DNA of 35,579 nt from a virus (Duplodnaviria > Caudoviricetes), in the IMG/VR virus record IMGVR_UViG_3300043932_000058, positions 1 through 35,579 of that record. One strand, written 5' to 3'. Of this stretch, positions 7,903 to 31,376 are shown one piece after another. The position numbers and the translations under genes were made by a program. Under the pieces are notes generated by a model, which made no database searches, was not told where the DNA came from, and worked only from the letters and a program-made list of their open reading frames with translations. Each line of letters begins with the position of its first letter. Positions within the stretch are counted from its first letter, which is position 1.

Positions 7903-9438
7903 GTGATGGCTTCGAAGATCACGCATGGTTTTACGGAGCCGAGGATTTTCACGAAGCCTTTGCGGGAGTTGACGCGTGAGACGTCGCGTGGTTTTGAGGC
8001 GATCCGGTTTGCGGAGAAGGTACTCAATGTTCGGCTTTTCCCGTGGCAGAAGTGGTTGTTTATTCATCTTTTGGAGTTGAATCCGGACGGGACGCTGCGG
8101 TTTCGTAAAGCGCTTGTAATTGTTGCTCGTCAGAATGGTAAAACGTTGATCGCTGCGGTCCTCGCGGCGTTCTTTTTGTATGTAGATTCGGTACGTTGGC
8201 CGGAATATATAAAGCCACGTGATTTTGTGATCGTGGGTGCGGCGCAGAAGCTTGATATTGCGATGAAACCATGGACGCAGGTGCGCCAGTGGGGTGGGCC
8301 GGATGATCCGCGTATTGGTATTGCTCATGATCGCGTCCCGATCTTGCAGGCAGTCACTCGGATGCCTCGCACGGCGAATGGTGAAACCGAGCTTGTTACC
8401 ACGGAGGGCGCGGTCTACAGGCCCAGAACGTTTGAGGGTGCGCGTGGATATTCGTCTGCGCGGCTGATTTTGGACGAGCTACGCGAACAACATGATTATG
8501 TGGGCTGGTCGGCGATCGAAAAATCGGCAACCGCCATGTTTGATTCGCTGTTGTTGGCGTTTTCGAATGCTGGCACCGCGAAATCGGAGGTTTTGCGGGA
8601 TGTGCGTACGATCGCGCACGAATCGGTGGATAAGCGGAATGCGCAGTGGTTTATCGCGGAGTGGTCTGCGGACGAGGATGCAGATTTGGATGATCCACGG
8701 GCGTTCGCGCAGGCAAATCCGTCGGCGGGCTATCTGCCTGCCATGACGATTGACGGGCTGATGCAGACCGCTGCGGAGGCGAAAAACAAGAATATTGAAC
8801 GGATTGAGGTTCTTTGCCAGTGGGTTTCCGCGCAAATCGAGCCATATATTGATGTTTCGGAGTGGAAGGCTGGGTTCGTCTCCCCATTTGAGGTGAGTAT
8901 TCCGCGCGGTTCGCGCACCGTGTGGGGTGTGGACGTGAGTTTTGACCGGCGTTGGACGTGGATTTCGGCGGCGGTTTTCCTGGATGATGGGCGGCCGTTC
9001 GTTCAACTGCGTGAGCGACACAAGTCGATGTTTAAGGCGGTGGATCGGCTGGCGGAGCTTGCTGCCGAGTCTGGTTCTAGCGAGGTTGCGTTACAGTCGC
9101 GTGGGTCCGCCTCGATGGAGCTTGTTCAACCGCTGCGGGAGAAGGGCTTGACGGTTCACGAGATCGATGGTGGGCATATTGGGCTCGCTACGGGGCGTTT
9201 CCGGGACCGCGTGCGGTCTGGGGAGCTTGCACATACTGAGCAGCCGTTGATTGATCTCGGTATCGAGGGTGGCATCGTGAAACGGATCGCTGAAAACGAG
9301 GCGTGGGATCGGTACCGATCGGTCGTTGACGTGGCGGGCGTCGTCTCTGAAACGGTAGCCCTCTACGGGCTGGAGGTACTAACACCAGGCGATGAGGTTT
9401 ATTCCGCCTATCAGGATTATGACGTGATGACTTTTTAG
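7903..9438 (+). CDS. terL: terminase large subunit
   Basis: LFPWQKW adenine-binding motif, VARQNGKT Walker A, LILDE Walker B, QANPS, and GVDVS nuclease motif. Confidence 0.95.
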   Translation: MMASKITHGFTEPRIFTKPLRELTRETSRGFEAIRFAEKVLNVRLFPWQKWLFIHLLELNPDGTLRFRKALVIVARQNGKTLIAAVLAAFFLYVDSVRWPEYIKPRDFVIVGAAQKLDIAMKPWTQVRQWGGPDDPRIGIAHDRVPILQAVTRMPRTANGETELVTTEGAVYRPRTFEGARGYSSARLILDELREQHDYVGWSAIEKSATAMFDSLLLAFSNAGTAKSEVLRDVRTIAHESVDKRNAQWFIAEWSADEDADLDDPRAFAQANPSAGYLPAMTIDGLMQTAAEAKNKNIERIEVLCQWVSAQIEPYIDVSEWKAGFVSPFEVSIPRGSRTVWGVDVSFDRRWTWISAAVFLDDGRPFVQLRERHKSMFKAVDRLAELAAESGSSEVALQSRGSASMELVQPLREKGLTVHEIDGGHIGLATGRFRDRVRSGELAHTEQPLIDLGIEGGIVKRIAENEAWDRYRSVVDVAGVVSETVALYGLEVLTPGDEVYSAYQDYDVMTF

Positions 9439-22647: not shown

Positions 22648-22884
22648 GGATTCGTGACGCGGCCTGGACGGACCACTATCCGGGCCTCGATTTTCCTGCG
22701 CGCTAGGAAAGCATTCCGTAGGTTTGCGCGGCATCCGAGCCTCACGCTCGCTCGGCGCGTCCGCTCCTATTGGGGCTGGGTAACGCATGCGGATTCCAGG
22801 AGATTTATAGCCCGCGCGCACCTGGTTGAGGTGCAGCGATCAGCGCGGGCTCTCGTATCCATCTCAGAAAGGCGGATCTCATGA
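22648..22884 (+). pseudogene. C-terminal remnant of a DGR-type reverse transcriptase
   Basis: GFVTRPGRTTIRASIFLRARKAFRR...RSYWGWVTHADS resembles RT motif 7 plus the thumb SYxGxxxHxxS motif. There is no YxDD and an in-frame stop sits at 22636-22638. Confidence 0.75.
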
Positions 22885-23992: not shown

Positions 23993-25036
23993 ATGGGGTC
24001 GCATACTCTCACCTCGTGGGTGGATGTCCTCGACACTAGCGATAATTTCATGTACACACTCCCCGTCACCGCCGATGGAGTACGGATTGTCACTGGTGGG
24101 GATATCACGAAATCGACGGGGCAGACGGTGCGCGGGCAGGGTTCGATCGATTTGCGTGGCGAAATCGACCTGCTAAACGTCAGGTTTCGGCCGTGGCGCG
24201 AGGTTGATGGGGTTGCGTGGCCTCTCGGGATTTTCGTCCCAGAAACCCCGGACATTGACTGGTCAGGTCTCGGCGCGGCCCGGAGTGTGGGCCTGCTCGA
24301 CAAGCTCACGCTCCTGGATCGGGCGAAACGCATGGACGAATACTCACTGCCTGCGGGGACGGTTGTCACGTCGGCGATTCGTGACCTGATCGAGTGGACT
24401 GGCGAGGCCGCTACCGGTATCGAGGTCGGGACGGATGTGCTGCGGACGGCGATCTCATGGGATCGGGGCACGACGGTCCTCGCGATTATCAACGATCTTT
24501 TGGATGCGATCAACTGTTTTTCCCTGCACGTGGATTCCGCGGGGAGGTTTCAGGTTACGCCGTACGTTGCTCCTGCGAGTCGGCCTATCGTCGTCGAGTT
24601 TATCCATGGTGAGAACGCGCAGTTTATGGACGAGTGGACAGAGACGCGTGACCTTGCGAGTGTCCCGAACCACTTCGCGTGCTATACGGCTGGGGATGAT
24701 GAGACGCCAGGCCTGATGGCAGAAGCCTACAACGACGACCCGGACGATCCGCTTTCCACCGTGAATCGTGGGGTGGTGTCTGCCGATCCGGAGCAGATCG
24801 AGGCGACAGATCAAGCGGTACTGGATGCGTATGCGGCGCGGCGTCTGATCGAGGTGGGCGCGGTGACTCGCACGGTGGAGATCGAGCATGTGCCCATGAA
24901 TCTACAGCTCAACGACGCGGTGCACTTCGTCCATCCGCCGTCGGGGATTGATGGGCGGTTTGTGGTGACAAAAACGGTGGAGCCGATCGACGAGGTGGCT
25001 TTGCAGAAAACGACGCTGCGGGAGGTGGTGGGCTGA
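23993..25036 (+). CDS. minor tail / baseplate hub-like protein
   Basis: WPLGIF, LLDKLTLLD, IINDLLDAIN, VPN...AYNDDPDDPLSTVNRG; tail module position. Confidence 0.75.
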   Translation: MGSHTLTSWVDVLDTSDNFMYTLPVTADGVRIVTGGDITKSTGQTVRGQGSIDLRGEIDLLNVRFRPWREVDGVAWPLGIFVPETPDIDWSGLGAARSVGLLDKLTLLDRAKRMDEYSLPAGTVVTSAIRDLIEWTGEAATGIEVGTDVLRTAISWDRGTTVLAIINDLLDAINCFSLHVDSAGRFQVTPYVAPASRPIVVEFIHGENAQFMDEWTETRDLASVPNHFACYTAGDDETPGLMAEAYNDDPDDPLSTVNRGVVSADPEQIEATDQAVLDAYAARRLIEVGAVTRTVEIEHVPMNLQLNDAVHFVHPPSGIDGRFVVTKTVEPIDEVALQKTTLREVVG

Positions 25037-25536
25037 TGGCTTTCACGGACACAGTTTTGGAGTCGGCGCGGAAAATCGCGTTGGATGTGGTGCGGAAATA
25101 CTCCCCCACGTTCCAGTGGGCTGCGGTGACCTCGACTGATCCGCTACAAGTCAGGTATGACGGGCGGTCTGATCCTCTAGCGGTCTCGCCATCCACGCTG
25201 GTGGGTGGGCTCATGGTAGGGGATCGTGTCTATGTAGTCACCTATATGCGGCGTGCGGTCATCGTCGGGAAAGCGGGAGGCGTATCTCCAGCAATCTATC
25301 GAGTAGACGGCACGGAAATCACCGTGACTGGAGGCGGGAGCAACTACGTCGCGCAAACAATTTCTTTCAAAGATCGTGGATCGGTACCGGCCATATATCC
25401 CGGCTACTGCGCCGGTCCAAATTTTAAAGGTTACATATCGGTGCAGCAGATAGCCGCATCGTCGTGCGTGATCCGCGTATGGAATGCTGGGACTGCCGAC
25501 TGGACTGGGACGCCTACCATACTGCTCGTCTACTAG
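25036..25536 (+). CDS. minor tail protein (OB-fold-like N-terminus, divergent C-terminus)
   Basis: AAVTSTDPLQVRYDG...LMVGDRVYV N-terminal pattern; last gene of the tail module. Confidence 0.7.
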   Translation: MAFTDTVLESARKIALDVVRKYSPTFQWAAVTSTDPLQVRYDGRSDPLAVSPSTLVGGLMVGDRVYVVTYMRRAVIVGKAGGVSPAIYRVDGTEITVTGGGSNYVAQTISFKDRGSVPAIYPGYCAGPNFKGYISVQQIAASSCVIRVWNAGTADWTGTPTILLVY

Positions 25537-26479: not shown

Positions 26480-26761
26480 GTGAACACCACTGATTCAACT
26501 ATCCAACAGGTAGCCACCCGTATGATCCCGGAGAAGATCCGCTGGGGTATCCTCCTAGCGGTCTTTGTTCTCCAGTCGGTCACGGCCGCGCTTCTCGCCG
26601 CATATTCGGCGATCGGGGAAGACTCCCCCGTTTGGATCTCTTTCGCTGCGGCATTCCTACTCGCGATCTCCGCACCAGTCACTCTCCTAGCAGCCGTCAA
26701 CGTCACCAAAACACCCGCGGGCGTCGCTATGGGAGCCGCGACCTCTACCGACGCGGGGTGA
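26480..26761 (+). CDS. holin-like membrane protein (2 TM)
   Basis: AGGAGG RBS before GTG 26480; two hydrophobic segments; follows the endolysin. Confidence 0.7.
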   Translation: MNTTDSTIQQVATRMIPEKIRWGILLAVFVLQSVTAALLAAYSAIGEDSPVWISFAAAFLLAISAPVTLLAAVNVTKTPAGVAMGAATSTDAG

Positions 26762-26764
26762 CCT

Positions 26765-27034
26765 ATGGGCGGCATTGATACTGGTATCATCGTCGCGGCT
26801 ATCGCGGCAGTAGGAGGAGTCGTGGTGGCCTGGATAAAATGGCGCACCGACCACGAGGCAAACTCGATCGCCGTACTGAAGGTCCTGGTAGAAGAGCAAG
26901 GCGAACAGATCGACCGGCTGCAAGAACGCGTCGATCGACTCGAATCAGAACTACGTGGAGAGAAAGACTACACGGCGTCGCTTCGGGATCACATTTACAA
27001 GAGGCTTCCACCGCCGCCGCCCCCACATCCATAA
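26765..27034 (+). CDS. single-TM coiled-coil lysis-cassette membrane protein
   Basis: N-terminal TM, heptad coiled coil and poly-Pro C-terminus. Confidence 0.7.
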   Translation: MGGIDTGIIVAAIAAVGGVVVAWIKWRTDHEANSIAVLKVLVEEQGEQIDRLQERVDRLESELRGEKDYTASLRDHIYKRLPPPPPPHP

Positions 27035-27076
27035 AAACTTTCCCCGGTCGCCCTGATGGGTGGCCGGGGAGTTTTT
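27033..27076. terminator. bidirectional intrinsic terminator between the lysis cassette and the leftward accessory operon
   Basis: AAAAACT-T-TCCCCGGTCGCCC-TGAT-GGGTGGCCGGGGA-GTTTTT. Confidence 0.85.
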
Positions 27077-27163
27077 CTATCCCCGTCTGCACGGGGAACA
27101 TTCCTGCTGCACCGATATTTGGTTAACGTAATATCGGCTCATCCCCGTCTGCACGGGGAACAT
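27073..27163 (-). CRISPR. cas-less type I-E-like CRISPR mini-array (2 repeats, one 33-nt spacer)
   Basis: Minus strand reads ATGTTCCCCGTGCAGACGGGGATGAGCCG (27163-27135), spacer ATATTACGTTAACCAAATATCGGTGCAGCAGGA (27134-27102), then ATGTTCCCCGTGCAGACGGGGATagaaaa (27101-27073). The 29-nt repeat has a 7-bp stem and an ATGAGCCG handle, matching the I-E pattern GTGTTCCCCGC..GCGGGGATnAnCCG. Confidence 0.88.
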
Positions 27164-27176
27164 TGACTCGATGGTA

Positions 27177-27800
27177 TCACTCCTCCCTGGCTTGCGCACG
27201 GGTCTTCATTTGATAGATCGCGGAACGGTCAATCTTGTAGCGGCGGGCGAGCGTGGTGGCGGATTCGCCATCCGCGAGCGCCTGGAGGATCATACGGTCG
27301 CGTTTTTCGACGAGGGTAGCGGCGAGTCTGCGGGCGGCTTCTAGCGCTGCCTGGGTGGGGTCGAGGTTGGTGTGCCAGTCGTCGAGGGCGGCGAGCTCTT
27401 TCCGGTAGGAGGCTTGCATGATTTCGGCGGAGTTGGACCCTGGGTCTGTGCCCCTGTATTGGGTGGGGAGTCGGTGGCCGTGGTCGGTGCGGGCTTCCCA
27501 TGCGGGGGTGATCTGCCAGGCGCCGAGGTGGTAGGTGGCGCGGTGTGGGTGGCCTGAGGGGATGATCCTTTTCGGGTTCCGCTCGTCGGGCACTCCGGCA
27601 GTGACGAGGAGGATTGAGGGTTCTTCTTTCTTGTCGTCGGGGTCTCCTGGTTTTTTGTCTCCGTCGTGGAGGATGTCCCATACGATGATCCAGCCGTCTG
27701 TCTGCTGGGTGGTGCCGTCGGTGAGGTGGTAGAGGTTTTTGACGGGGTAGGCGGTGCCGGGCTGGTAGTCGAGGAGGCCGGCGGTGACGGTGTGCTCCAT
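27177..27800 (-). CDS. unknown N-terminal domain fused to a C-terminal HTH (Aca-like regulator candidate)
   Basis: AGAAAGGAA RBS before ATG 27800; C-terminal RDRMILQALADGESATTLARRYKIDRSAIYQMK is an HTH pattern. Confidence 0.75.
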   Translation of the reverse strand: MEHTVTAGLLDYQPGTAYPVKNLYHLTDGTTQQTDGWIIVWDILHDGDKKPGDPDDKKEEPSILLVTAGVPDERNPKRIIPSGHPHRATYHLGAWQITPAWEARTDHGHRLPTQYRGTDPGSNSAEIMQASYRKELAALDDWHTNLDPTQAALEAARRLAATLVEKRDRMILQALADGESATTLARRYKIDRSAIYQMKTRAQAREE

Positions 27801-27828
27801 GAGCGGGGTTCCTTTCTGGTGGTGTTGG

Positions 27829-28170
27829 TTAGGCTGCGAAATCGAAGCCGGTGACAACGTCGAGGTCGAGGCCGAGGATTTCGGCGGCCTGCTCGTCGTC
27901 CATGACGTCTCCGCCCATCGCGTTGGCGAAGCCGTCGCCGTCTGCGGTGCGGCCCCAAGAGGGTACGTGGTAGAGGCCCTGGGTCTCGTCTGCGTACTCG
28001 TAGAGGGCGCGGGCGATGCCTTCGCCTTGGTGGTCGGCGTCGACTTCGACGTTGAGGATGAGGCCGGAGGTGTGGGCTAGGAGGTATCCGACTTCTTCGC
28101 CGTCGATGATTGCGGCGTAGCGGGTGCTGTCGAGTCCGTCTGTGGTTTGGGTGGTGGTTGTGATTTCCAT
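27829..28170 (-). CDS. minimal GNAT-family acetyltransferase
   Basis: ILNVEVDADHQGEGIARALY is the GNAT motif A acetyl-CoA loop; AGAGGAAAAG RBS; 113 aa and very acidic. Confidence 0.8.
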   Translation of the reverse strand: MEITTTTQTTDGLDSTRYAAIIDGEEVGYLLAHTSGLILNVEVDADHQGEGIARALYEYADETQGLYHVPSWGRTADGDGFANAMGGDVMDDEQAAEILGLDLDVVTGFDFAA

Positions 28171-28195
28171 TTTCTTTTCCTCTCTGCCTTACACT

Positions 28196-28228
28196 GTCTA
28201 GTGTACTCGACACTAGACGAACATGCAA
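28196..28228 (-). promoter_or_regulatory. leftward sigma-A promoter overlapped by a palindromic operator
   Basis: Minus strand TTGCAT (28228-28223), N17, TACACT (28205-28200); perfect inverted repeat GTCTAGTGT-N5-ACACTAGAC at 28196-28218. Confidence 0.8.
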
Positions 28229-28311: not shown

Positions 28312-28569
28312 TGCTAAAGACTTGCTAAAAAATCACCGCCGGATCCACGCGGCCACAGCGCCTCAATTCATAACGTGACCTGCGCAAACTCCTTGGTGCC
28401 CCGAACAGGATTCGAACCTGCGGCCTTCTGCTCCGGAGGCAGACGCTCTACAATTTCCGCGGTAGACTGGCCTCGGCAAACAGCCTGCTCACGTGGCAAA
28501 ACAGCCTAAACCCTTGTGCACAGCGGCGGCTATGCCTAGGCTACTAGTTGCTAAAAGAGTTGCTAAAAG
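28312..28569. repeat. putative integrase arm-type sites flanking the attP core
   Basis: TGCTAAA pairs at 28312 and 28323 on the left; TTGCTAAAAG at 28548 and 28560 on the right. Confidence 0.7.
28394..28450 (-). other. attP core: 3' portion of tRNA-Arg(CCG)
   Basis: Minus strand TAGAGCGTCTGCCTCCGGAGCAGAAGGCCGCAGGTTCGAATCCTGTTCGGGGCACCA has the anticodon arm (CCG), T-arm GGTTCGAATCC and CCA end. The 5' acceptor/D-arm half is missing, and the integrase is adjacent. Confidence 0.9.
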
Positions 28570-28581
28570 GATCGGGGAGGC

Positions 28582-29865
28582 ATGAAAGCTCGCACACGGA
28601 AGCCGAAACGCGGCCACAAAACCCTCTACGGCAAAGGGTCGTTCTACTATCGTGAGAAGGATAATCGGTGGGTGGGTGCATTTCTCGCCGGGCAAACCAG
28701 ATCCGGTAAGCCTCGCCGGATCGTCGTCACCGACCAGCGCGAAGATGAGGCGTGGCGAAAATACGTCGAGGCCCAAGAAAGGTGGATCAAGGAGGGGCCG
28801 CTGCCCGACGGCCTACAGGCCGGGCAGACCGTCAGCGGGTGGGCCACTCACTGGCTCGACTCCCGCAAAGGCGTCGTACGGCCAAAGACTCAAGCGCAGG
28901 ACAAGACGAACGTCAACAAATGGATCGTGCCCACCATCGGCTCCATCAAGCTCGAAAAACTCACCGCCGCCCACATGCGCAAGGTAGGGGATGCCGTGCT
29001 CACTGCCGGAAACTCACTCTCCGCCGCGAACTCCGCCCAGCGCACACTCAATAAATTGCTCCGTGACGCTGTAGCCGACGGATACCGCGTGCCAGAACGT
29101 ATCTTCGCTGCGTCCAAAATGTCGCGCGGATCATCAGAGCGTACCCGCATGTCCAAAGATGAGGTACGCAAAACGTTCTCCAAAGCATTCGAGCTTCACC
29201 CCGATGCCGTCCGATTCTTCATCGCAGTGCTCTACGGCTCGCGTCAATCCGAAGTTCTCGGCCTCACCTGGGATCGCGTAATCTTCTACGACGACGTGCC
29301 CGAAGGCTCAACGGTCGTGGGGGAGCTGAGATTGTCATTCCAGGTACAGCAGCTCCCGAAAGATCCGGACACAGGCAAGCCTGTAGCGAAGCGCGACGAT
29401 GAGATAATCCACCTCGTCGATTCCTGGTATCTCGTGCCCACGAAAACGGAGGCTGGGAAACGTACCGTGCCACTCGTCTCCCCGGTGGCGAAGGAACTCA
29501 AAGCGTGGAAAGCGAAATGTAAGGCCGCGAAATACAAGAACCCGCACAACCTCGTTTTCCCGCGCATAACCGGAATGTCCACCTACCTCGGCTATCCCCG
29601 CAATGCCAAGCAAGACGCGAAAGACTGGCGCACGATCCAAGACGCCGCCAACGTCCATAAGCCCGACGGATCATACTATCTACTCCACGAAGCTCGACAT
29701 TCGATGATCTCCATGCTCGCCGACGCGCGGGTGCCACGCCACATCATCGAGATGCTGGTAGGTCAGACAGAGCTAGTCGAATCCTACGTTCATGGCGAAA
29801 TGGAGACAGCCGCCCGCGCCATCACCGACGTTCTAGTACCACTACTGCCCGAAGGTGCGCGATAG
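28582..29865 (+). CDS. int: tyrosine integrase
   Basis: N-terminal arm-binding domain (GKGSFY..RWVG); catalytic R (YGSRQSEVLGLTWD), K (TKTEAGKR), HEARH and Y (ESYVH). Confidence 0.93.
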   Translation: MKARTRKPKRGHKTLYGKGSFYYREKDNRWVGAFLAGQTRSGKPRRIVVTDQREDEAWRKYVEAQERWIKEGPLPDGLQAGQTVSGWATHWLDSRKGVVRPKTQAQDKTNVNKWIVPTIGSIKLEKLTAAHMRKVGDAVLTAGNSLSAANSAQRTLNKLLRDAVADGYRVPERIFAASKMSRGSSERTRMSKDEVRKTFSKAFELHPDAVRFFIAVLYGSRQSEVLGLTWDRVIFYDDVPEGSTVVGELRLSFQVQQLPKDPDTGKPVAKRDDEIIHLVDSWYLVPTKTEAGKRTVPLVSPVAKELKAWKAKCKAAKYKNPHNLVFPRITGMSTYLGYPRNAKQDAKDWRTIQDAANVHKPDGSYYLLHEARHSMISMLADARVPRHIIEMLVGQTELVESYVHGEMETAARAITDVLVPLLPEGAR

Positions 29866-29867
29866 AG

Positions 29868-29915
29868 AAGGCCCAGACTCTCCGATTATCTGGAGAGTCT
29901 GGGCCTTTATTTCTT
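29868..29915. terminator. terminator between the convergent integrase and repressor genes
   Basis: 16-bp perfect stem AAGGCCCAGACTCTCC-N8-GGAGAGTCTGGGCCTT followed by TATTTCTT. Confidence 0.85.
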
Positions 29916-30469: not shown

Positions 30470-30558
30470 GCGGGAAGCATATCGAATTAGGAGATGCTAC
30501 CCTCGCCCCCTTCTTCAAGGGCCTCAAGACGCTCCATGCGGAAGGTGGTGTGAAGTGA
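30466..30558 (+). CDS. 30-aa hypothetical peptide (not in the ORF track)
   Basis: MSGKHIELGDATLAPFFKGLKTLHAEGGVK*; ATGA and GTGA overlaps with both neighbours. Confidence 0.55.
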   Translation: MSGKHIELGDATLAPFFKGLKTLHAEGGVK

Positions 30559-31376
30559 CTGAGGTTGTCGAGAATCCACTCACCCACAGCGAGGCTGAGC
30601 GGATCACTGAACGAATTCGGCTCACGGTTGATTCCACCTCACGCAATCTTGCAAAGCTCGCCGAGCTGGTAGCAGAAGCGTTCTCCCGCCGCGCGGATCT
30701 CGCTATGGGCTATGGTTCGTGGGACGAGTATTCGCGGGCGGAGTTTGGGGAAAAGGCAAGTAACCTTGCGCCAGAGTTCCGCCGCCAGCTCGTCGGCATG
30801 CTGAGCGCAGAGGGTATGAGTACGCGGGCAATCGCGCCAGCGGTAGGCAAAGATCATTCAACTGTGGTTCGCGACCGCCAGGTGGTGCAGGATGCACCAC
30901 CTGCCCCGACCGATGGGGTAACGAAACGCGACCCCATCCCCGAAACACCTCCCGCCGGCTCAACTCTCGCCACCACCGATCGTGTGATCGTTGCCGAGCA
31001 ACGGCATGTGGATATGGATACCGGCGAGGTTATCGAACCTAAGCCGGAGCCGCGCAAAGTCACTGGACTGGACGGGAAGCAATACACGCAACCTAAGCCA
31101 CGTCCGAAACCGCACGTAATCGACACCGCCGAAGAAGCAGACCTGATAAACGCGAAAACCTCGGCGACGCGTATCGGCTCCGGGCTGATGACCCTCGAAA
31201 GTTTCACCGTCCCTGAACACCGCCACCGGGTACTCACCAGATGGTGGCCTAAGGGCAAAGAGTTTGTGCCTCCAGACGAGCGCGAACTCTTCCAACCGAA
31301 GGCACTGCGCGCCATCGCAGACGCCCTCAATCAACTCGCAAACGAAATGGAGGCACTAGAGCATGAACAACTCTAA
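30555..31376 (+). CDS. HTH-containing early protein
   Basis: LSAEGMSTRAIAPAVGKDHSTVVRD HTH; MGYGSWDEY motif; VTGLDGKQY motif. Confidence 0.7.
   Translation: MTEVVENPLTHSEAERITERIRLTVDSTSRNLAKLAELVAEAFSRRADLAMGYGSWDEYSRAEFGEKASNLAPEFRRQLVGMLSAEGMSTRAIAPAVGKDHSTVVRDRQVVQDAPPAPTDGVTKRDPIPETPPAGSTLATTDRVIVAEQRHVDMDTGEVIEPKPEPRKVTGLDGKQYTQPKPRPKPHVIDTAEEADLINAKTSATRIGSGLMTLESFTVPEHRHRVLTRWWPKGKEFVPPDERELFQPKALRAIADALNQLANEMEALEHEQL

Follow-up and report, generated by a model that had tools for sequence, protein, structure and literature searches.

A cas-less type I-E mini-array in a temperate actinobacterial phage as a candidate RNA anti-CRISPR

Introduction

The element described here is compared first with the Cracr RNAs of Liu et al. 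(10.1101/2024.10.29.618823), such as the CracrIE array of a Salmonella prophage. As presented in the sections of the preprint drawn on here, that array and ours are both phage-borne, cas-less and of type I-E; both have the order repeat, spacer, degenerate repeat and terminator, and both occur in single- and multi-spacer forms. Repeat-like and spacer-like sequence together with a terminator, on a mobile element and outside a CRISPR-cas locus, are found here as in Cracrs, and Cracr candidates have been reported against loci of Actinomycetota. There are also differences. Cracrs are defined by at least nine PAM-proximal bases in common with a host CreR/CreA, or by a match to a cas or creT promoter next to a PAM, whereas the present element is likened to them from its anatomy and context. 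The arrays of the preprint match different CreRs and have spacers of 21–24 nt, whereas the spacers here share one seed and the spacer of our phage is 33 nt long. Linkage to an acr locus was shown there for acrIF24, an HTH-bearing Acr; here there is an acr-like layout, with an uncharacterised GNAT protein and an HTH fusion as neighbours.

Three other kinds of element are relevant. The regulatory mini-arrays of Shmakov et al. (10.1101/2023.03.03.530964) were found by their likeness to host mini-arrays, and the viral cases in the part of that report used here are of types I-B and I-F1, whereas the present element is of type I-E and is known from phage DNA alone. Interviral mini-CRISPR arrays, as in SPV1 and SPV2 (PMC6858448; PMC7099407), have one or two spacers and no cas genes, as here, and also have in common with our locus a temperate carrier, the absence in phages of a host-type leader, and a likeness to nearby genes. 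The spacers of SPV1 and SPV2 are described as matching rival viruses at 100%, whereas the matching part of the present spacer is confined to its PAM-distal 15 nt. Finally, Racrs (PMC10651486) mimic the host repeat within an acr-like locus, as here, and are described as solitary repeats; our phage has two repeats and a full-length spacer, a mini-array by the pipeline of that paper, and a solitary form occurs in one low-depth contig. A degenerate distal repeat and an absent leader are features of mini-arrays already described (PMC7099407, 10.1101/2023.03.03.530964, PMC6858448), and with its class likewise known, the locus is a useful example rather than a surprise.

Results

The phage, its likely host and its relatives

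The window analysed here is the entire virus record IMGVR_UViG_3300043932_000058, of 35,579 bases. Annotated in it are the head and tail genes of a siphovirus together with an endolysin, an integrase, repressors and a WhiB, and the virus is a temperate actinobacterial phage. Its probable attachment site and integrase are adjacent:

28405..28460, minus strand: tRNA-Arg(CCG) fragment, likely attP, adjoining the integrase
28582-29865: integrase, beside the tRNA-Arg fragment

All five runs that contain at least half of the locus are bioreactor sludge metagenomes. The sister-array contigs discussed below were drawn from four (X1, X6, X10 and X14) of the 24 runs with matches to the locus. Among viral contigs, the sole relative found was IMGVR_UViG_3300043958_000061 (G002), which has in common with the window only a cassette (26481-27817), a promoter (28164-28218) and a few early genes, and whose first repeat and spacer match the window's exactly.

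Because the named homologues of the phage's GNAT gene come from Actinomyces howellii and a Schaalia sp., the host is likely a member of the Actinomycetaceae. A scan of 185,579 genomes for the repeat gave nine loci, namely one Deinococcus array and eight single REP-like matches, none of them actinobacterial. An exact scan of metagenomes for the 23-nt repeat gave no loci, and a second metagenome repeat scan gave four, two of them with arrays of a different repeat. Plasmid searches yielded nothing beyond distant integrases and weak similarities to gammaproteobacterial records. One high-GC contig, L014 (1-9088), has an I-E operon with cas2, cas3, cas8e, cas11, cas7, cas5 and cas6e-like ORFs, named by inspection, beside an array; it was rejected as the host, its repeat differing from the phage repeat at both ends. 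The same is true of a second high-GC metagenome array, L017 (1-500), and both L014 and L017 have the stem-loop in common with the phage.

Anatomy of the mini-array

The whole unit, from repeat through terminator, occupies 27163-27033 on the minus strand and is cas-less. Its parts are:

27135..27163, minus strand: proximal full type I-E repeat, 29 nt, with a 6-bp stem and a 4-nt loop (from sequence and folding)
27102..27134, minus strand: spacer, 33 nt
27121..27134, minus strand: spacer bases 1–14, PAM-proximal, the predicted targeting part (seed); unchanged in the sister spacer
27102..27120, minus strand: spacer bases 15–33, PAM-distal; 7 of the 19 differ in a sister contig
27079..27101, minus strand: distal repeat, its first 23 nt identical to the proximal repeat, truncated at the predicted cut site
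27033..27078, both strands: bidirectional intrinsic terminator at the boundary between lysis cassette and array

An earlier reading of the DNA, made from the sequence only, had described two repeats identical over 23 nt, and all of its coordinates hold. The 21-nt repeat core occurs twice in the window, the repeats being 62 nt apart, and in none of 100 shuffles; no further copy in the window exceeds 18/29. The proximal repeat has 26/29 nt in common with a long array from a Cse1-encoding Deinococcus genome bin, which argues that it is of type I-E. Rfam gave only sub-threshold CRISPR-DR28 matches.

The predicted Cas6e cut in the proximal repeat follows base 21 (27143) and would give a 5′ handle of 8 nt. 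Cuts at both stem bases would yield a unit of 8 + 33 + 21 nt, the dimensions given for the E. coli crRNA (8-nt handle, 32–33-nt spacer and 21-nt hairpin; PMC4288178), in agreement with the proposal that the array retains the anatomy of a processable crRNA. For an actinobacterial I-E system, an AAG PAM and 32-bp spacers are on record (PMC4762764).

The distal repeat was also said to decay at the expected Cas6e cut site. This point is strengthened by the relatives: the distal repeat of G002 (on L001) is identical for 21 nt, the match ending exactly after the stem, and contigs of X10 and X14 have a junction of the same kind. In the window, the distal copy passes into the A-tract of the terminator. 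The terminator hairpin (27040-27071) has z-scores of -4.5 and -6.7 on the two strands; the terminator sequence varies between relatives, and the hairpin is kept in G002.

An acr-like operon that ends in the array

The array closes a minus-strand unit whose order is a palindrome-covered promoter, a GNAT gene, an HTH gene and the array:

28196..28228, minus strand: operon promoter, TTGCAT, 17 nt, TACACT (hexamers 28228-28200)
28196-28218: palindrome with 9-bp arms, overlapping the operon promoter
27829..28170, minus strand: 113-aa GNAT-fold acetyltransferase, candidate anti-defence protein (Pfam, model and fold search)
27177..27800, minus strand: 207-aa protein with a beta-rich N-terminal part and a C-terminal HTH, candidate Aca or Acr-Aca fusion
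27171..27179, minus strand: extended -10-like motif, its TGA being the stop codon of the HTH gene; putative start near 27164-27163

A promoter lying over an inverted repeat and an HTH gene in last position are features of the acr-aca layout as outlined in PMC8633003 and PMC9001735, and both are found here. Neither protein was tied to a known Acr or Aca by searches of PADLOC, PDB sequences, folds or the Atlas; a negative there rules nothing out, and the likeness is therefore one of layout only.

The GNAT assignment is based on a Pfam match (E 4e-5), a confident model (pLDDT 92) and a fold search (best Z 9.2, rmsd 3.9, 99 aligned). The family has 153 matches, the named ones being in Actinomyces, Schaalia and siphoviruses, and AcrVA5 is cited as a precedent for an acetyltransferase acting as an Acr (PMC7556299). 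A homologue that is 36% identical (L043 2968-3273; OR148987.1) adjoins an endolysin in a saliva phage. The model of the 207-aa protein is poor (pLDDT 49), and within this low-confidence model the HTH part resembles a generic HTH (best Z 7.4, rmsd 1.4, 45 aligned). In G002, behind the same promoter, a 134-aa acidic protein (L012 2572-2976) replaces the GNAT protein as first gene, a position that makes it a candidate anti-CRISPR. A weak relative of the acidic protein is gp31 of Gordonia phage Finkle (32%, E 7e-5).

A possible promoter of the array itself

The sequence-only reading proposed that the array has no leader and that TGATACCAT, at 27179-27171 and 7 nt upstream of the repeat, could serve as its own promoter. 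The motif is where it was said to be. Since its TGA is the stop codon of the 207-aa ORF (27800-27177), the gap between gene and repeat is only 13 nt, and there is no room for a leader. A TGA directly followed by TAnnnT is rarer than chance in this genome (9 of 1,145 TGAs), and 2.4% of sites have a TAnnnT 5–9 nt upstream. In X6 record 16, the array module is preceded by other sequence, which joins it at 27182, 3 nt upstream of the TGA, with TGA and motif kept; there may be a third gene that shares this stop codon and the array.

No terminator-like hairpin was detected on the minus strand between the operon promoter, 1 kb upstream, and the array, which counts against the need for a separate promoter. 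A sigma-70 scan recovered neither the operon promoter nor the extended -10. The contigs from three metatranscriptome runs are short and fall on the 207-aa gene, with the array covered by none of them; such contigs cannot show start, strand or level, may include DNA, and come from runs picked by this stretch. Overall, an internal promoter is plausible and unproven, at about even odds.

Sister arrays

X14 record 9, of 3,987 nt, runs through the entire array without a break. Its spacer differs from that of the window at positions 15, 16, 17, 28, 29, 31 and 32 and at none of positions 1–14; bases 18–27 are likewise unchanged. Sparing of the seed by seven changes has P = 0.012 if they are independent and P = 0.19 if they represent three clustered events, and with one fully read sister spacer and clustered changes, the contrast between a fixed PAM-proximal and a changed PAM-distal part is modest. 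The expectation that related phages would vary the spacer and keep the repeats is borne out for the PAM-distal part and fails for bases 1–14.

Repeat 1 of the same record differs at position 4, which is outside the stem, and at position 16, where a U-A pair becomes U-G. Six of its 15 differences were not located by position and presumably lie towards either end of the stretch. A change at repeat position 13 in relatives, placed from contig ends, would fall in the loop. The repeat changes of readable position (4, 16 and 13) all spare the base pairs.

Other contigs depart from the one-spacer form. X6 record 12 maps to 27121-27140 and then to 27079-27150, which gives the window spacer, a full repeat and a second spacer whose first 14 nt are those of the first. 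X1 record 2 agrees with this structure, with six unaligned bases where the handle would continue. For the terminal-repeat contigs of X1 and X6, the alignment ends at 27102, where the X14 spacer starts differing. The simplest model, judging from contig ends, is a sister layout of repeat, spacer A, repeat, spacer B and truncated repeat, in which the added unit resembles a duplicate more than a fresh acquisition. Contig depth in X6 is 250 over the inner unit against 86–93 at the ends, a hint of more than two units, depth not being copy number. In X14 record 10, 62 nt are skipped and the repeat stands alone, at a depth of 3.5 against 129.5; this solitary repeat, the one place where the Racr form is found, could reflect either a genuine deletion or an artefact of the library. 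The one-spacer form is not merely an assembly collapse, because X10 record 8 spans it in 151 nt. One spacer is, however, only one state of a series that includes contigs with a second spacer or with a repeat alone, and the earlier claim that the array is kept for exactly one crRNA is not supported, given the full inner repeat and second spacer of the sister contigs.

These data bear on the possibility that the RNA is a pure decoy, as in Racrs, which would only soak up Cas6e, Cas7 or Cascade, with a targetless spacer conserved for a hairpin with the handle. Spacer bases 16–23 can in fact pair with the handle and spacer bases 1–5 to form a 9-bp hairpin of -10.4 kcal/mol, a stability equalled by 19 of 500 shuffled spacers. 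The acr-like operon context, the low-depth repeat-alone contig (X14 record 10) and the existence of I-E Racrs, as reported in PMC10651486, would also suit a decoy. Racrs, however, are solitary repeats, whereas here a second intact hairpin 33 nt away would yield a normal crRNA. Furthermore, bases 6–14, most of which belong to the hairpin loop, are unchanged, whereas the paired bases 16 and 17 are changed in the sister; with two paired bases changing while loop bases do not, structure is an unlikely reason for the conservation. We therefore consider a pure decoy quite unlikely.

A match to the phage's own tail region

The PAM-distal half of the spacer has an exact counterpart in the phage itself:

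25435..25449, plus strand: 15 nt identical to spacer bases 17–31, inside a tail-region gene (25036-25536)

The triplet upstream of this site is TCC, and the seed half has no match there. The match is probably not due to chance, because 15 nt was reached by none of 2,000 shuffled spacers and by 4 of 2,000 unrelated 33-mers, a chance of about 0.002 or less. It raises the possibility that the spacer is an anti-phage guide taken from a related phage. The spacer is of canonical length, and the 15-nt identity is in frame (ISVQQ in both) and 1.7 kb from the array; mini-array spacers against nearby genes of related viruses, with the carrier's own locus altered, are reported in PMC6858448. G002 also fits: it shares the spacer, its virion genes are unrelated, and no match there exceeds 12 nt.

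Several observations are difficult to reconcile with such an origin. The PAM-proximal 16 nt of the spacer match the tail gene at only 5 positions. In the sister spacer, four of the 15 matching bases are altered and the frame is interrupted by a stop; only three of its seven changes fall on third codon positions. YYVNQ, the peptide of the spacer, is present in none of the seven tail-gene homologues, of 156, that align over the domain, and the P-x-F-K-G that precedes the motif persists as far as a relative of 44% identity. Four viral scans gave no protospacer; the back-translated one returned 20 matches, of which the best besides the array reached 23/33. In sum, an anti-phage guide is possible but on the whole rather unlikely.

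The tail gene (25036-25536) has no relative in the viral contigs or in G002. Two of its four close homologues share the first ~80 residues (90–96%) and have a different C-terminal domain; such a swappable C-terminal half is as expected for a receptor-binding module.

Searches for a target of the seed

A search of 2.9 million viral contigs for a protospacer, using the exact spacer and two wobble patterns, returned only G002's own array, and blastn of phage records returned none; close relatives may be missing from these viral collections. Seed matches of more than nine positions were absent from the six loci scanned, including L014. The seed motif is also absent from the supplements of PMC10651486 and PMC10120712, and Table S2 of the Cracr preprint may list the element or its target.

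The seed itself is promoter-like. Its G+C content is 4/14, and it has three -10-like TAnnnT hexamers over both strands. In post-hoc tests, 2.2% of phage 14-mers are equally AT-rich, and three TAnnnT are found in 0.1% of all phage 14-mers and in 1.6% of the equally AT-rich ones.

Two other scenarios were considered together: (i) that the guide serves self-regulation by acting on DNA of the phage itself; and (ii) that the array is a neutral relic, a captured array fragment in decay. The partial match to the phage's own tail gene could be cited for the first, and the gain and loss of array units between relatives for the second. However, a seed run of more than eight positions is found nowhere in the window, and G002 has one seed run of 12, which falls within coding sequence and is not immediately preceded by AAG. 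The stems remain intact, and repeat 1 and the spacer are identical in two phages that otherwise share little. Both scenarios appear very improbable. A seed likeness of 11/14 in G002 (L021, about 8586-8600) was set aside as chance, being in a coding region and one base off AAG.

Discussion

We suggest that the mini-array is an RNA anti-CRISPR of the Cracr type, directed against a promoter of the host, a reading to which we assign about an even chance and in which the promoter target is a prediction. It is favoured by the seed kept in the sister, the second spacer that shares it, its promoter-like composition, the acr-like context and the absence of a protospacer from the viral contigs scanned. 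A kept seed with diverged non-seed sequence is the pattern of regulatory viral mini-arrays in the account of 10.1101/2023.03.03.530964, and multi-spacer I-E Cracr arrays as well as an array of three repeats whose two spacers are largely identical have been described (10.1101/2024.10.29.618823, 10.1101/2023.03.03.530964).

A possible mechanism is as follows. Transcription of the array would start at the operon promoter and might start at the internal -10 as well, and host Cas6e would cut the transcript at both stem bases. The resulting CRISPR-like RNA would be loaded into host Cascade, where the first 14 guide bases would bind a host promoter without cutting, the pairing being too short to trigger Cas3. 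The predicted target is a cas promoter or the promoter of a Cas-guarded toxin. Immunity would be lowered and Cascade would be occupied as well, and the GNAT and HTH proteins would also have an anti-CRISPR role.

Several points count against this Cracr-type reading, among them the modest seed contrast and the absence of a known Acr or Aca among the protein matches. The 15-nt match to the phage's own tail gene is not predicted for a promoter-derived guide and is unexplained; that the distal spacer half arose by recombination with phage DNA is a guess. The hairpin between handle and spacer could hinder loading. In addition, the spacer is of full length, in contrast to the short spacers of the tested I-E Cracr.

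A more elaborate version would make the array a copy-number dial. Through repeat recombination it would exist as a repeat alone, acting as a decoy, as one guide, or as at least two seed-identical guides, with one seed directed against an Actinomycetaceae cas promoter and with distal halves that drift or are overwritten by phage DNA; the GNAT and HTH-fusion proteins would be new I-E anti-CRISPRs. We regard this full combination as doubtful.

If the Cracr-type reading is true, this phage of a digester-sludge host, likely one of the Actinomycetaceae, carries an RNA anti-CRISPR of type I-E, and the two adjoining uncharacterised proteins (the GNAT and the 207-aa protein) become anti-CRISPR candidates. 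The sister spacers that share the seed would then be a natural readout of the guide bases that matter, about 14, of use in predicting the host target.

Other features of the phage genome

A DNA methyltransferase of the phage (260-1291) is a possible further anti-defence gene. In the tail region, a 76-aa ORF (22654-22884) has a weak match to a reverse-transcriptase family (E 5e-4), which probably reflects a shared small domain. There are also two perfect palindromes: one with 11-bp arms (30879-30903) lies within an HTH gene (30555-31376), and the other, with 16-bp arms (29868-29907), lies between the integrase and a repressor and is likely a terminator.
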